This document shows positions 2,330-9,044 of a stretch of 11,341 nt of DNA, one piece after another. Numbering within the stretch: the stretch's first letter is position 1; each line of letters starts with the position of its first letter. A program made the translations under genes and the position numbers. The stretch spans positions 1 through 11,341 of the forward strand of contig JZWU02000039.1 in NCBI GenBank assembly GCA_000960865.2, read 5' to 3'. Below the pieces are notes generated by a model that made no database searches, was not told the origin of the DNA, and saw nothing but the letters and a program-made list of their open reading frames with translations. Source of the DNA: Vulcanisaeta sp. AZ3 (GTDB taxonomy: Archaea > Thermoproteota > Thermoprotei > Thermoproteales > Thermocladiaceae).

Positions 2330-4147
2330 ATGACAAAGGCATTAGTAACGAGGTTAACATATCCGGTGATAGTACTAACCATAGTATTGGCATTAGTAAC
2401 ACCGGTAGTAACGGCAGAGCAGGTAATACATCCAGTGATGTATAACATGACAACAATAACAGAGTCTAATGACCCATTCGTAACATATAATGGCTTTTAC
2501 TCCTTCGAGGCATACCAACCATTACCTCCAGGTAAGCCAATAGTAATACCGGTGCTCACTAATGCTGTATTCCCATATAAGCTAAGCAATAATTACGCGA
2601 CTGTGCCTCAAAATGCGACGGTGTGTATACCACCTGGTACCTATAGTATAATTCTACTAAATGTAACAATAACAGAGACCGGTGGGCCTCAGTATGATAG
2701 GGCATTCTACATATTCGCAAATGGGATACCCGTGTTCTGGGGTAGTACGCAGGAAATACTCAATTCAACGGCCTGGTCTGATTTGACACTCTTTGAGAAT
2801 ATGCTGGCCGGGAATTGTGTTATATTTAGGGCTATATTGCCTAATTGGATAGTGCCTTCGATAGGGGTTACTGGGTATTACGTGGTAAATATAACTCTAT
2901 ATCTATACAAGGGGCCAGAACCATCAAACTTGCCTAATTACTTCATACCAATCGCACCCAATGCCTATGGAGTATCTCTGATTGGGTTAAATCCGTTTCA
3001 TGACGATATAACGTATATGGTAAACCTTCCTAATGGTACATATAGAGCCCTCATACTTATGTACATGGAGGGTGGTGAATTAGATGAGTTCTGGTACACA
3101 AACGAACCTGCAACAAGGAACCTACTCATTTACTACAATGGTTACCTGGCCTCTGTCTTTAATCCATTCGAAACAATATACACTGGCGGTATTGACCCAT
3201 TCATGTGGAAGCCCATGCCCTCAATAAACACTTTGTCCTTCCATAACCCATATGTAGCCGATATAACGCCCTTACTTGCTACAGGTCTTAGGGGCAACAT
3301 AACTATAACAATGACAAATCTATACGAGGCATACGAATTAACAGGATTACCTTACTATACCTGGACAGTCTCGGGAGTACTCATGCTTTGGGTAAATAAC
3401 TCTAACAAGTTGGTAGGTGGTAAATTAATAACCGCGCAATCAAGATTCTTTGATTCAGGGCCGAAATTCTCAACAACGTCAACGGGCCTAACGGAATATG
3501 TTGAATATGGTAATTATAGCATTAATTACGTGGCTGAGTTATATTATCAACACGGAACCGAGATTTCCCATACAGAACAGAGCGGTGTGTTTAATGCATT
3601 CCAGCTATTTAACCAGGTTATGGAATACGGAACATTAAATGAGAACTTCACTGAGACGTCCATGGACACATTCTTAGGTATGGGTAATCCATTCACACTA
3701 TCCTTTGAAGGTAAATACCCAATAGTATTTAATATAACTGCGTATGTAACACCACTCGGACCAACAACTCATTACCCGTATCCAGCTGCTTATATTCAGT
3801 ACGCAACGATTTACATACCAATGAGCACTCATGAATTAATGTCAACGCCTAGAATGACCTACACATCAGATATTAAGGATACACTTAATTCTTACGGCTT
3901 CATGAACCTTACATTGGAGATAATTAATCCATACGGAGGAGCCGTGGTCACTGGAATATCAGGCAATTACGCAAGAACAAGTAAGAACCTAACTTCAACT
4001 ACAATCTACTCAACCCCCGCTAGCACATGGGGTTGGCTTGAGAGATTCAGTGCATTAGCAATATCGCCAAATGCCACTGACCTAATTGGTTATTACCAAT
4101 ATGTAACGCTTAGGTTATTGCATATTGGCGTACCAATGTGGAAGTAA
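2330..4147 (+). CDS. Secreted peptide-N4-(N-acetyl-beta-glucosaminyl)asparagine amidase A (PNGase A) family protein
   Basis: N-terminal signal peptide (basic n-region, hydrophobic core, ...VTA). PNGase A-type motifs GPQYDR, DEFWY, IYTGGIDPFMWKP and DITPLL. 14 N-X-S/T sequons counted by eye. Confidence 0.82.
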   Translation: MTKALVTRLTYPVIVLTIVLALVTPVVTAEQVIHPVMYNMTTITESNDPFVTYNGFYSFEAYQPLPPGKPIVIPVLTNAVFPYKLSNNYATVPQNATVCIPPGTYSIILLNVTITETGGPQYDRAFYIFANGIPVFWGSTQEILNSTAWSDLTLFENMLAGNCVIFRAILPNWIVPSIGVTGYYVVNITLYLYKGPEPSNLPNYFIPIAPNAYGVSLIGLNPFHDDITYMVNLPNGTYRALILMYMEGGELDEFWYTNEPATRNLLIYYNGYLASVFNPFETIYTGGIDPFMWKPMPSINTLSFHNPYVADITPLLATGLRGNITITMTNLYEAYELTGLPYYTWTVSGVLMLWVNNSNKLVGGKLITAQSRFFDSGPKFSTTSTGLTEYVEYGNYSINYVAELYYQHGTEISHTEQSGVFNAFQLFNQVMEYGTLNENFTETSMDTFLGMGNPFTLSFEGKYPIVFNITAYVTPLGPTTHYPYPAAYIQYATIYIPMSTHELMSTPRMTYTSDIKDTLNSYGFMNLTLEIINPYGGAVVTGISGNYARTSKNLTSTTIYSTPASTWGWLERFSALAISPNATDLIGYYQYVTLRLLHIGVPMWK

Positions 4148-6603: not shown

Positions 6604-7542
6604 TTAAATTGAGAGTGGTGGGTATATGCGTGCTATTATCATTGATACTATGAATATTATGAGCATTATTAATCTAATACTGAAGGGCCCAGCCCATAGC
6701 TTTCTAAGTTCCTTCCACCTCTTCTTAACCTCGGTCTCATCGCCACTGAGTAGGGGGTTTACGAGGCTTACTATCTCTGGTATTAATAGTAGGGTTATTA
6801 GGGAGGTGTATGGTAGGTAATGGAGTATAGTGGAGGTTATTATGGCCAAGTACATAACAGTTATTGATGTATAAATCACGTATTTTATATTCTTAAACCC
6901 AAGAAGGAGCACCAGTGTTTTCTTACCAACCTTCCTACAAGCGTCTAGTTCAAGGGCTCCTGAACCCAGTAGTATTAATAGTGTAAATATGCCATTAGGT
7001 ATACCGACAATCAGCGGTGCTAGGTTTGTGTATATCCCTGTTTGTACTATGAATGAGCCCCAAGTCACGAGGGGTCCCATGGCTATTGCAGCTAGTAATT
7101 CGCCATAACCATTATAGTGGAATTCGAGCGGTGGGGCTGTATAACCAATACCAATGATTAAGCCCGTTAGTGCTAGGGGGAGGATGGGCCAGCCGACAAT
7201 TATGACTAGGTAGATTCCGGCTAGGAATGCTATGGTGAGGAATGCATAACCAACGGTGATTACATCCCTAGACTTGAGTCCAAGGTCTATTATTGGGTGT
7301 GGCCTATGGGCGAAGCCACTTGCTCTATAGAGTATGTCAACGCCTTTTATATAATCGTAGTAATCACTGACTAGGTTCACACCTGCCTGAGCTAATAGTA
7401 GGGCTACAAGGGTTATTATATAGATCGCTAGGTTAAATTTATCGGCTAGGTACCAGGCTAATGCTGTACCGAGGGTTACGGATGAGAAAGCGCTCAAGAG
7501 TGTTGTTGGGCTGAGTGAAAGTAACCATGATTTTAGGTTCAT
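6604..7542 (-). CDS. UbiA-superfamily membrane protein, MenA (1,4-dihydroxy-2-naphthoate prenyltransferase)-like, with degenerate catalytic motifs
   Basis: QAGVNLVSDYYDYIKGVD, YTAPP...YNGYGE, GPLVTWGSFIVQ and GKKTL align with the MenA consensus. ATG 7542 was chosen; an in-frame TTG lies at 7545. Confidence 0.8.
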   Translation of the reverse strand: MNLKSWLLSLSPTTLLSAFSSVTLGTALAWYLADKFNLAIYIITLVALLLAQAGVNLVSDYYDYIKGVDILYRASGFAHRPHPIIDLGLKSRDVITVGYAFLTIAFLAGIYLVIIVGWPILPLALTGLIIGIGYTAPPLEFHYNGYGELLAAIAMGPLVTWGSFIVQTGIYTNLAPLIVGIPNGIFTLLILLGSGALELDACRKVGKKTLVLLLGFKNIKYVIYTSITVMYLAIITSTILHYLPYTSLITLLLIPEIVSLVNPLLSGDETEVKKRWKELRKLWAGPFSIRLIMLIIFIVSMIIARIYPPLSI

Positions 7543-7564
7543 CAATTTTTGGGCATTGGTATGG

Positions 7565-7577
7565 ATTTAAGTTTTTC
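7565..7577 (-). promoter_or_regulatory. Putative BRE/TATA for the MenA-like gene
   Basis: The minus strand reads GAAAAACTTAAAT, ending about 22 nt before ATG 7542. Confidence 0.5.
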
Positions 7578-7628
7578 TAAGGGATGTAGAGAATAATTGT
7601 TTTAGTTGGGGTCTTACGGTTTATTTTA

Positions 7629-9044
7629 ATGCCACTTAATAGTCTTAGGGAGTACCTGGATCTATTGAGGGGTAAGGGTGAACTTGTTGAGTTGAATGAG
7701 GAGTTAAGCTTGGATTTAGAGGTTGCTGCGTTCCTTAGGGAGTTAATGTATAGAGGAGGCCCTGCAGTTCTTATTAGGAAAATTAAGGAGGGTACATTAC
7801 CCATAATCGGTAATCTATTTAGTAAGTGGGATAGAGTTTTCATGGCGCTTGGCGATAGGGATCCTGAGAAGGCTGTTGGTGAGTTGATTAATATGCTTGA
7901 TGTTAGGATACCTAGTGGATTTTTCGATGCTATGAGAACTTTGGGCGAGTTAAAGAGATTTTCCCGGTACTTCTCGAGGACTGTTAATGAAGGACCCGTT
8001 AGAGAAATTGAATGGGATGGAATTGACCTCACAAGAATACCTGCAATTAGGCAGTGGCCTCACGAACCTGGTCGTTTCATTACCATGGGTCTTACCTTCG
8101 TGAGGCATGGTGATTATAGGAATTTCGGTTATTATAGGTTGCAGGTTATTGGCAGAGATCGCTTTATAATGCATTGGCAGCCGTGGCGTAGGAGTGCCAT
8201 GTATGGTGAATTGGGTGAGGGTGAGGTTGCCGTTGTCTTTGGTCCTGACCCAGTGACTATGCTTATGGGTGGTGTTCCAATACCTCATCCTCTGGATAAG
8301 TTGTTGGTGACCGGCGTAGTTAGGGGTGAGGGTATTGAGTTGGTGAGGGGTTCTACTGTGGGTGTTGAGTATCCTGCAAATGCGGAGTTAGTCATTGAGG
8401 GTAGGTTGACGGGTGAGTATGCTAGAGAGGGGCCTTTTGGTGATCATGTTGGTGTTTATTCCATAGCTAAAGAGTACCCTGTGGTTAAGGCCACGGCAAT
8501 TTACTCTAGGGAGGATGCCTTGATACCCGTAACGGTCACCGGGAAGCCGTTGCTTGAGGATGCGAGTATCATTAGGTTTGGTAATATGGTTGTCAAGCCA
8601 CTGCTTAAGATGTTATTGCCTGAGGTTGTTGACATATCAATACCGCCGGAGGGTTTAAGCTACATCGTGATCGTCTCGATTAGGAAGAAGTACCCTGGAC
8701 ATGCTAGAAGGGTTATGCTGACATTATGGGGTTTGGTTCCCGTGCTAGGTAAGGTGATGATTGTCACGGATCACGACATAAACATAAATGATTGGAGGCA
8801 AGTGATGTATGCTGTTGCGGCTCATGTTAATCCATCGAGGGATATACTCATTATTAATAATTATCCAGTGGAGGAACTTGATCCATCAACACCAATACCG
8901 AACCTGGGTAGCAAGGTTGGGATTGATGCAACTAGGAAGTTGCCAGAGGAGTATGGTGGTGAGTACCCAATGGATGCTGATGCTAATGTGCCTAGGGAAA
9001 TTATTGATAAGGTAAGTAGAATACTTAGTAACCTTAAGCATTAA
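7629..9044 (+). CDS. UbiD family prFMN-dependent decarboxylase (possibly MqnL-like, menaquinone biosynthesis)
   Basis: Motifs LREYLDLL..KGEL, IIGNLF, RNFGYYRLQ, PANAELVIEG, EGPFGDHVGVY, YPGHARRV, LDPS and GSKVGIDATRK. Confidence 0.92.
   Translation: MPLNSLREYLDLLRGKGELVELNEELSLDLEVAAFLRELMYRGGPAVLIRKIKEGTLPIIGNLFSKWDRVFMALGDRDPEKAVGELINMLDVRIPSGFFDAMRTLGELKRFSRYFSRTVNEGPVREIEWDGIDLTRIPAIRQWPHEPGRFITMGLTFVRHGDYRNFGYYRLQVIGRDRFIMHWQPWRRSAMYGELGEGEVAVVFGPDPVTMLMGGVPIPHPLDKLLVTGVVRGEGIELVRGSTVGVEYPANAELVIEGRLTGEYAREGPFGDHVGVYSIAKEYPVVKATAIYSREDALIPVTVTGKPLLEDASIIRFGNMVVKPLLKMLLPEVVDISIPPEGLSYIVIVSIRKKYPGHARRVMLTLWGLVPVLGKVMIVTDHDININDWRQVMYAVAAHVNPSRDILIINNYPVEELDPSTPIPNLGSKVGIDATRKLPEEYGGEYPMDADANVPREIIDKVSRILSNLKH

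Follow-up and report, generated by a model that had tools for sequence, protein, structure and literature searches.

A MenA-like protein clade with replaced catalytic signatures, encoded beside an MqnL-type UbiD decarboxylase in Vulcanisaeta and related archaea

A pair of Asp-rich motifs is regarded as the catalytic signature that defines every enzyme of the UbiA superfamily. In AfUbiA from Archaeoglobus fulgidus, as described in PMC4106721, two Mg2+ ions are coordinated by residues of motif I (N68 and D72) and of motif II (D198 and D202), and R22 and K146 touch the diphosphate; the substitutions R22A, N68A, D72A and K146A abolished binding of geranyl pyrophosphate (GPP), whose binding became 45-fold weaker with D198A and 21-fold weaker with D202A. 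According to the same text, the equivalents of N68, D72, D198, D202 and the tyrosine Y139 are required in E. coli MenA both in vivo and in vitro, and N102, K181, D236 and D240 of UBIAD1 correspond to N68, K146, D198 and D202 of AfUbiA. A further member, MqnP, is a comparative-genomics prediction for the prenyltransferase of the late futalosine pathway in the study by Ravcheev and Thiele (2016; PMC4746308), from which the name MqnL for the quinone-pathway UbiD decarboxylase is also taken. The present work concerns a MenA/UBIAD1-like membrane protein (P0001) encoded in a stretch of 11,341 nt from Vulcanisaeta sp. AZ3, the whole of which is referred to as the window (and its genome as G000), in which several of these residues are replaced.

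6604..7542, minus strand: coding sequence of the MenA/UBIAD1-like membrane protein P0001 of the UbiA family, 312 amino acids (aa) from ATG

The start codon is the ATG at 7540-7542, where the orthologues begin; an in-frame TTG lies one codon upstream (7543-7545) and would give an open reading frame (ORF) of 6604..7545. The stop codon is at 6604-6606, and the frame is open across 6604..7542 with neither stop nor frameshift, in agreement with a preliminary description of this DNA made from its letters alone. The Pfam UbiA family (PF01040) matched residues 23-254 at 63.7 bits, where its gathering score is 34.2, and a hydropathy scan with a 19-residue window, a rough method and not a topology predictor, gave eight clear hydrophobic segments and a weaker N-terminal one, about nine in total, in keeping with the eight or nine transmembrane helices of the superfamily. 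The top NCBIfam matches were MenA models, all ten of those listed being under their cut-offs (best 137.6 against 277); the MenA model TIGR00751 gave 51.4 bits against a cut-off of 102.15, and neither an MqnP model nor TIGR01475 was among the NCBIfam matches at E <= 0.1. The UBIAD1 chain 8djk_B was the sole solved structure reached by sequence (E 3e-17, and 2.4e-24 with the clade profile), and neither AfUbiA nor ApUbiA was retrieved when solved structures were searched with the sequence or with the profile. Residues of AfUbiA were thus mapped onto the window protein through HMMER alignments to UBIAD1 and the register of the motifs.

A word-indexed search gave 117 matches, of which 40 were 47-78% identical to the window protein, after which identity fell to at most 35%. 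The named sources of these 40 relatives are Vulcanisaeta, Caldivirga, Thermocladium, Caldisphaera/Caldisphaeraceae and Conexivisphaera, and database sources give the clade proteins generic labels such as '1,4-dihydroxy-2-naphthoate octaprenyltransferase'. Residues were counted over the resulting 41 sequences, fragments included, at the following sites, where TM denotes a transmembrane helix.

7501..7512, minus strand: SPTT in place of RPxT, residues 11-14
7336..7377, minus strand: motif I, NLVSDYYDYIKGVD, residues 56-69, containing SDYYD where the canonical motif reads NDxxD
7303..7308, minus strand: H79-R80 in the TM2-TM3 loop; H in 41 of 41, R in 40 and K in one
7138..7143, minus strand: Y134-T135, equivalent to Y139-S140 of AfUbiA and Y174-T175 of UBIAD1, the near-universal UbiA tyrosine on TM4; Y in 41 of 41
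6913..6963, minus strand: variant motif II, SGALELDACRKVGKKTL, residues 194-210, where the canonical motif reads NNxRDxxxDxxxGKxTL
6673..6717, minus strand: clade-specific conserved stretch WKELRKLWAGPFSIR before the last helix; W283, P286, F287 and R290 invariant in 21 aligned members

The preliminary description had read SPTT (residues 11-14), SDYYD (within residues 56-69) and SGALELDACRKVGKKTL (residues 194-210) in the window protein, and these readings are exact to the letter. Its conclusion that three signatures had been replaced holds in that the departures are real and clade-wide, but motif I, which reads NDxxDxxxD in the superfamily and NDxxDxxxGxD in MenA, has lost its leading Asn only, with D60, D63 and D69 all present in the window protein. 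With SPTT and its motif II region (SGALELDACRKVGKKT), the window protein fails the MenA signatures RPxT and NNxRDxxxDxxxGKxT. Position 11 is S in 39 sequences, T in one and a gap in one, and never R. In motif I, N56, D60 and D69 are kept in 41 of 41 sequences, and position 63 is D in 36 and E in five; position 59, equivalent to N68 of AfUbiA and N102 of UBIAD1, is H in 34, N in six and S only in the window protein. UBIAD1 as deposited in 8djk_B also has S where N102 is expected. Position 142 is H in 33 sequences, K in six and V in two. Within motif II, E198 stands at the first Asp site (E 30, K 6, M 2, R 1, gaps 2) and C202 at the second (C 19, S 14, Y 4, I 1, A 1, gaps 2; D never); between them lies the acidic D200 (D 21, E 17, M 1, gaps 2; acidic in 38 of 39 filled rows), and K207 is kept in all 38 filled rows. 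A single truncated row of 204 aa accounts for the outlying R, M and A at positions 198, 200 and 202. Invariant positions number 57 over 21 members (47-78% identity), including H79, R80 and the W..ELR.LWAGPF stretch.

Mapped onto AfUbiA in this way, the window protein has S59 at N68, D63 at D72, H142 at K146, E198 at D198, C202 at D202 and Y134 at Y139, and S11 would correspond to R22 if the latter is the first-helix Arg of RPxT. By the alignment, the clade is without the N-terminal Arg and the DxxxD arrangement, and retains an acidic pair spaced i,i+2. R80, within the H79-R80 pair, is a candidate for a substitute basic residue.

Since these variants are common to the 40 relatives and the gene is under purifying selection, the odd motifs are a trait of the clade and not a sign of recent decay. 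Among eight orthologous coding sequences the proportion of nonsynonymous differences (pN, 0.059-0.238) was lower than that of synonymous differences (pS, 0.587-0.764) in 28 of 28 pairs; dN/dS ranged from 0.042 to 0.133 in the 26 pairs with computable dS, ratios that are rough as dS is saturated. The orthologue alignment and dN/dS analysis, both of which the preliminary description had proposed, thus revealed variant motifs conserved under purifying selection and close orthologues without canonical motifs. A young MenA pseudogene in the window genome, with its frame still open, would fit Ser59 being found in the window alone, the head-group genes of the quinone pathway not being found in this genome, and the window protein being further from its Caldivirga orthologues (64.5-66% identity) than three other Vulcanisaeta proteins are (69-73.6%), with no comparable lag in the neighbouring UbiD. 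The window protein does show this mild acceleration, which is unexplained. Such decay is nevertheless very improbable, and for the motifs it is ruled out by the orthologue alignment, dN/dS and the number of private changes: dN/dS of the pairs that include the window (0.076-0.133) is similar to that of the remaining pairs, the window protein has only two private changes at sites at least 90% conserved (0-1 in the seven other members compared), no stop or frameshift is present, and Ser at the motif I Asn position is found also in the Vulcanisaeta paralogue L146.

Run against 1.84 billion representatives, a profile of the clade matched 7766 proteins at E <= 0.001, with 507.7 bits for the clade representative and 252.7 for the next protein. 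Among the best 60 of 151 aligned rows (150 listed matches and the window protein), sister types also without the Arg were found (P0118, P0119, P0120, P0122, P0124, P0125, P0127 and P0161), and these carry a different motif II variant, ..[RH]x[DE]xD.., again with an acidic pair at i,i+2. In a tree of 59 chosen rows, other matches being left out, obtained by a quick search with support from the Shimodaira-Hasegawa-like approximate likelihood ratio test (SH-aLRT) only, the clade received a support of 96 (16 rows), the clade with its sisters 100 (24 rows) and the MenA/UBIAD1-like radiation 98 (53 rows). The clade and its sisters nest inside the MenA/UBIAD1 radiation, beside bacterial MenA; the rows of MqnP-type proteins, heme O synthase and digeranylgeranylglyceryl phosphate (DGGGP) synthase lie outside this radiation, the MqnP-type ones far from the clade. 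The search for a canonical paralogue that the preliminary description had suggested led to L002, a MenA/UBIAD1-like protein of the same genome that is 30% identical to the window protein and has the motifs NDYFD and NNYRDREYD. It belongs to a separate paralogue group of archaeal UBIAD1-like proteins of RPWSF/RAWSL type (L002, L102, L134, L135, L143, L145, L148 and L149); in the window protein both the RPWSF-type N-terminal motif and NNxRDxxxD are missing. A literature search, with most subscription journals outside it, found no description of the clade or of a UbiA member without motif II; the 'non-canonical' plant UbiA enzymes of PMC12172877 are so called for reverse prenylation and not for missing motifs.

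The gene is flanked by the following features.

7546..7628: spacer of 83 bp between the divergent prenyltransferase-like and UbiD genes
7629..9044, plus strand: UbiD-family decarboxylase of MqnL (menaquinone-pathway) type, 471 aa, matched by TIGR03701 and TIGR00148
5362..6564, minus strand: transporter of the major facilitator superfamily (MFS), metabolite/H+ symporter-like, 39 nt downstream of the prenyltransferase-like gene

The UbiD protein of the window scored 345.2 bits with TIGR03701, below the cut-off of 495.9, and 333.6 bits with TIGR00148, above that of 244.85. The window genome has a second UbiD (C10:17437-18702; L009:1144-2538), 28% identical to that of the window, and two UbiX genes, on contigs C35 and C50. 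In a class sample of 81 genomes, where f1 denotes the family of the window and f2 a sister family of the same order, orthologues of the window UbiD (at least 41% identity) were confined to f1 (11 of 11), f2 (20 of 21, one of them split) and f5 (two of three), and the UbiD matches in the remaining families are explained by a second UbiD type of about 25-32% identity. This widespread type presumably provides the archaeal mevalonate pathway with its UbiD-type decarboxylase, and the window UbiD would therefore be the one of the quinone pathway, MqnL. In one f2 genome (G072:C1:124185-125553) the MqnL-type UbiD is found as two overlapping pieces, in frames of 236 and 313 aa, and is either split or frameshifted.

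The distribution of MqnP-type UbiA proteins is the reverse of that of the variant MenA-like proteins. The former were found at E <= 1e-25 in 21 of 21 f2 genomes, in none of the 11 f1 genomes, not in the window genome and nowhere else in the sample. An example, L101, scored 228.6 bits with TIGR01475, above the cut-off, and 155 bits with an MqnP model, and L105 gave 207.6 with TIGR01475. In genus g7 the MqnP-type gene lies directly beside the MqnL-type gene in seven of seven genomes. By this adjacency and the reverse presence pattern, the slot beside MqnL is occupied by MqnP in f2 and by the variant MenA-like protein in f1.

In most relatives the clade gene adjoins an MqnL-type UbiD gene. Among 26 related loci from named public genomes, 17 have a UbiD homologue, directly adjacent in 13 (head-to-head in Vulcanisaeta and Caldivirga, tail-to-tail in Hestiella) and at 1.2-2.6 kb in four, from Conexivisphaera and Nitrososphaeria relatives; none was found in the locus stretches of the other nine, which are from Caldisphaera/Acidilobaceae, Thermocladium, a 4.4-kb contig and paralogue loci. 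In whole genomes of family f1, the clade gene and UbiD are adjacent in seven of seven genomes of genera g1 and g2, and in G078 the UbiD orthologue is immediately preceded by a sister-type MenA-like gene. The partnership with the MFS transporter that the preliminary description had put forward finds its counterpart within Vulcanisaeta, where the MFS gene lies 3' of the clade gene in all eight loci, but not elsewhere: the Caldivirga loci have no such link, and the MFS proteins of the Hestiella and Thermocladium loci did not match the window MFS at E 1e-8. Since the link is conserved within Vulcanisaeta only, the transporter was left out of the main explanation.

Genomes bearing the clade gene were also surveyed for other UbiA-family proteins. 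Both G024 and G056 possess MqnA/D-type and MqnC/E-type genes; apart from the clade protein, the only UbiA-family matches in these two genomes are heme O synthase and a DGGGP synthase-like protein. In ten more genomes with the clade gene (G081-G090) there is no MqnP-type gene (0 of 10); heme O synthase was present by best match in all ten (eight above the cut-off, one cut by a contig end and one just under) and a DGGGP synthase-like gene in nine. Seven of the ten have no other MenA-like gene, one has a single canonical paralogue and one has two. The MqnL-type UbiD was detected in 10 of 10 (322-471 bits, with one partial match at 188), and full-length MqnA/D-type genes in seven, with none in G082 and G084 and a remnant in G089. 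Because no other UbiA candidate is left, the clade protein would by elimination be the quinone prenyltransferase of genomes with such an inventory.

Clade-wide odd motifs, purifying selection, linkage with an MqnL-type UbiD, complementarity with MqnP and the want of another candidate in several genomes are thus the observed base on which the interpretation is built. What they most probably indicate, though by no means with certainty, is that the clade protein is an active, MenA-derived prenyltransferase with variant motifs that replaces MqnP beside MqnL and has an altered diphosphate/metal site. It would be a membrane polyprenyltransferase of respiratory (menaquinone-type) quinone synthesis, derived from the MenA/UBIAD1 branch of the UbiA superfamily, that took over the late-futalosine job of MqnP in the family of the window and in some other archaea of acidic hot springs. 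The protein would prenylate a naphthoate head group, most likely 1,4-dihydroxy-6-naphthoate, after which the neighbouring MqnL-type UbiD, with prenylated flavin mononucleotide (prenyl-FMN) from UbiX, would take off the carboxyl group. The diphosphate of the donor may be held by motif I (N56, D60, D63 and D69), K207, the re-spaced E198/D200 and perhaps R80, instead of the DxxxD and N-terminal Arg of canonical members.

Several observations weigh against this interpretation. By the present mapping the window protein differs at four or five of the six AfUbiA sites (S11, S59, H142, E198 and C202), and the mutants of E. coli MenA and AfUbiA give genuine grounds for holding that textbook operation of the donor site is impossible here. 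The protein also satisfies no NCBIfam cut-off for MenA or MqnP. The window genome has no MqnC/E match and no match to the rest of the mqn cluster of G039, and its MqnA/D-type gene is a remnant of about 111 codons with stops (C7:31061-31393), 54% identical to the G039 gene. Of the Men pathway, MenB alone was searched for, its best match in the window genome being 146.4 bits against a cut-off of 342.7, and no MenG/UbiE match was above the cut-off in that genome. Three of the ten further genomes are likewise without full MqnA/D-type genes, and the genomes of Caldisphaera/Acidilobaceae resemble that of the window in this respect; in genomes without head-group genes, the pair of clade protein and UbiD must be either idle or acting on an acid obtained otherwise. 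A canonical MenA/UBIAD1-like paralogue, present in the window genome, G039, G084 and G089, could do the job there. Finally, no measured quinones of Vulcanisaeta, Caldivirga or Thermocladium were found in the literature searched, the subscription journals that carry species descriptions being mostly outside it. As to the missing mqn genes, the window assembly comprises 1.51 Mb in 55 contigs and is 89.85% complete, against 2.0-2.4 Mb for the genus, and their absence from the genome is therefore not shown.

The MqnA/D-type remnant, the sole futalosine head-group gene trace found in the assembly, comprises 75 aa that correspond to profile positions 197-251 of 252 and lies, outside the window, about 430 bp downstream of aroA. 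The latter, encoding 5-enolpyruvylshikimate-3-phosphate (EPSP) synthase, is itself divided between two ORFs that differ in frame and cover profile positions 10-222 and 233-414, the region spanning G000:C7:29446-31393 (L113:5447-7394). Either a real loss of chorismate and futalosine genes or an assembly error may be behind the split gene and the remnant.

Of the other explanations, the one ranked next to an active enzyme of the kind just described, and considered unlikely, keeps the fold and the pathway neighbourhood and assumes a different donor-site chemistry or a different step. The donor could be other than a polyprenyl diphosphate bound through Mg2+, or the mechanism could use one metal; alternatively, the protein could prenylate another, imported aromatic acid (in Vulcanisaeta by way of the linked MFS transporter), which MqnL would then decarboxylate. 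Such a change would agree with the clade-wide, non-random replacement of the diphosphate and second-Mg2+ residues of characterised members, and with the persistence of the protein and the MqnL-type UbiD in G000, G082 and G084, in which searches revealed no head-group pathway, and in G089, which has only a remnant; a gene missing from a metagenome-assembled genome is not thereby shown to be absent. Import of an aromatic acid would likewise suit the transporter, whose best models are metabolite/H+ symporters including shikimate and aromatic-acid transporters, all below cut-off, and the pairing of MenA-like and MFS genes twice in Vulcanisaeta, once in the orthologous pair and once in a paralogous pair (L038:6004-8030; L146:3345-5503) whose MenA-like and MFS proteins are 41-42% and 33% identical, respectively, to those of the window. 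That link is missing outside Vulcanisaeta, however; no positive sign of another donor or acceptor was seen, and the acidic pair, motif I and the tyrosine favour ordinary ionisation of a prenyl diphosphate.

Less probable again, and ranked third, is a pseudoenzyme, that is, a non-catalytic UbiA-fold protein that binds lipid or quinone or serves as a membrane partner of UbiD or of the MFS transporter, a role of the kind preferred in the preliminary description. The changes at the N-terminal Arg, at the Asn of motif I and at the two Asp residues of motif II, which are needed in AfUbiA and E. coli MenA according to PMC4106721, speak for this explanation, as do the conserved pairing with UbiD and the canonical paralogues noted above. 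A mere binder would not need D60, D63, D69, Y134, the GK lysine K207 and an acidic residue at position 200, however, and all of these are kept. The gene moreover fills, beside MqnL, the slot of the active-type MqnP, and a pseudoenzyme would leave G024, G056 and seven of the ten further genomes, where the clade protein is the only quinone UbiA left, without a quinone prenyltransferase despite their MqnL-type UbiD and, mostly, their head-group genes. An active enzyme thus remains the more likely explanation. A more far-reaching form of it can be put forward only tentatively and is rather doubtful: a UbiA-fold enzyme may ionise polyprenyl diphosphate without motif II and the Arg, in a differently built site, and may have displaced MqnP in several acidic-hot-spring lineages, acting where no head-group pathway was found (the window genome and the Caldisphaera relatives) with the MqnL-type decarboxylase on an imported aromatic acid, in Vulcanisaeta through the linked MFS transporter.

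A clade kept under purifying selection without motif II and the Arg, and sole quinone candidate in several genomes, would show how much rebuilding the catalytic site of this superfamily tolerates, and its natural variants are material at hand for studies of the mechanism. If the proposed function is true, it accounts for a late step of menaquinone synthesis that has been without an assigned enzyme in one archaeal family and among the relatives of Conexivisphaera and Hestiella. Caution is in any case advised with the automatic label '1,4-dihydroxy-2-naphthoate octaprenyltransferase' for proteins of this clade.

Some further features of these loci may be recorded. In two other f1 genera the sister-type MenA-like gene stands in a conserved row (L144:3955-9481; L147:2373-7273; L037:2588-6906), the members of which are a DsrC-like protein (L147), a nitrate-reductase-gamma/DsrM-like membrane protein (L144), a DsrK/HdrD-like protein with Fer4 and CCG domains, a 212-aa protein of the TP_methylase family and the MenA-like protein; in L144 an MqnL-type UbiD comes after the sister-type MenA-like gene. 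Genes of quinone synthesis thus adjoin a probable quinol-interacting Dsr module in these genera. In five drafts of cultured strains (L027, L030, L035, L036 and L039) the MenA-like, UbiD, MFS and DUF72 genes were matched in pieces in different frames, and comparison of L039 with P0038, both from Thermocladium modestius, revealed apparent small insertions; the fragmented genes look like assembly errors rather than decay. The window also encodes, at 2330-4147 on the plus strand, a protein of 605 aa that has a hydrophobic segment at its N terminus and matches the PNGase A domain with 100.5 bits, a family seldom expected in archaea; its gene is conserved beside rhomboid and DUF72 genes in Vulcanisaeta loci.

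Among the known systems, MenA of the E. coli type is the closest branch by sequence: it supplies the best models, adjoins the clade on the tree as bacterial MenA, and shares with the window protein the style of motif I with its G..D ending (N..xDxxDxxxGxD), the tyrosine and the GKxT lysine. The window protein differs in scoring below every MenA cut-off and in having neither the RPxT Arg nor NNxRDxxxD, and its gene is paired with a separate UbiD decarboxylase in a genome in which a MenB search found no Men pathway. MenA is not known to need a separate UbiD decarboxylase. UBIAD1, the human menaquinone-4 synthase (8djk_B), aligns over nearly its full length and sets the register of both motifs, but its N102, K181, D236 and D240 are met by S59, H142, E198 and C202 in the window protein. 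With MqnP the window gene has in common that it adjoins an MqnL-type UbiD. Most genomes that bear the clade also have Mqn head-group genes, and the clade and MqnP are mutually exclusive in their phyletic distribution; the window genome itself has the MqnL-type gene and two UbiX genes, but no head-group genes beyond the MqnA/D-type remnant were found in it. The clade and MqnP have no subfamily-level homology, however, and the true MqnP-type proteins L101 and L105 are far off on the tree. From AfUbiA, finally, the window protein keeps the equivalents of D72 (D63) and Y139 (Y134), whereas those of N68, K146, D198 and D202 are replaced, as presumably is that of R22.

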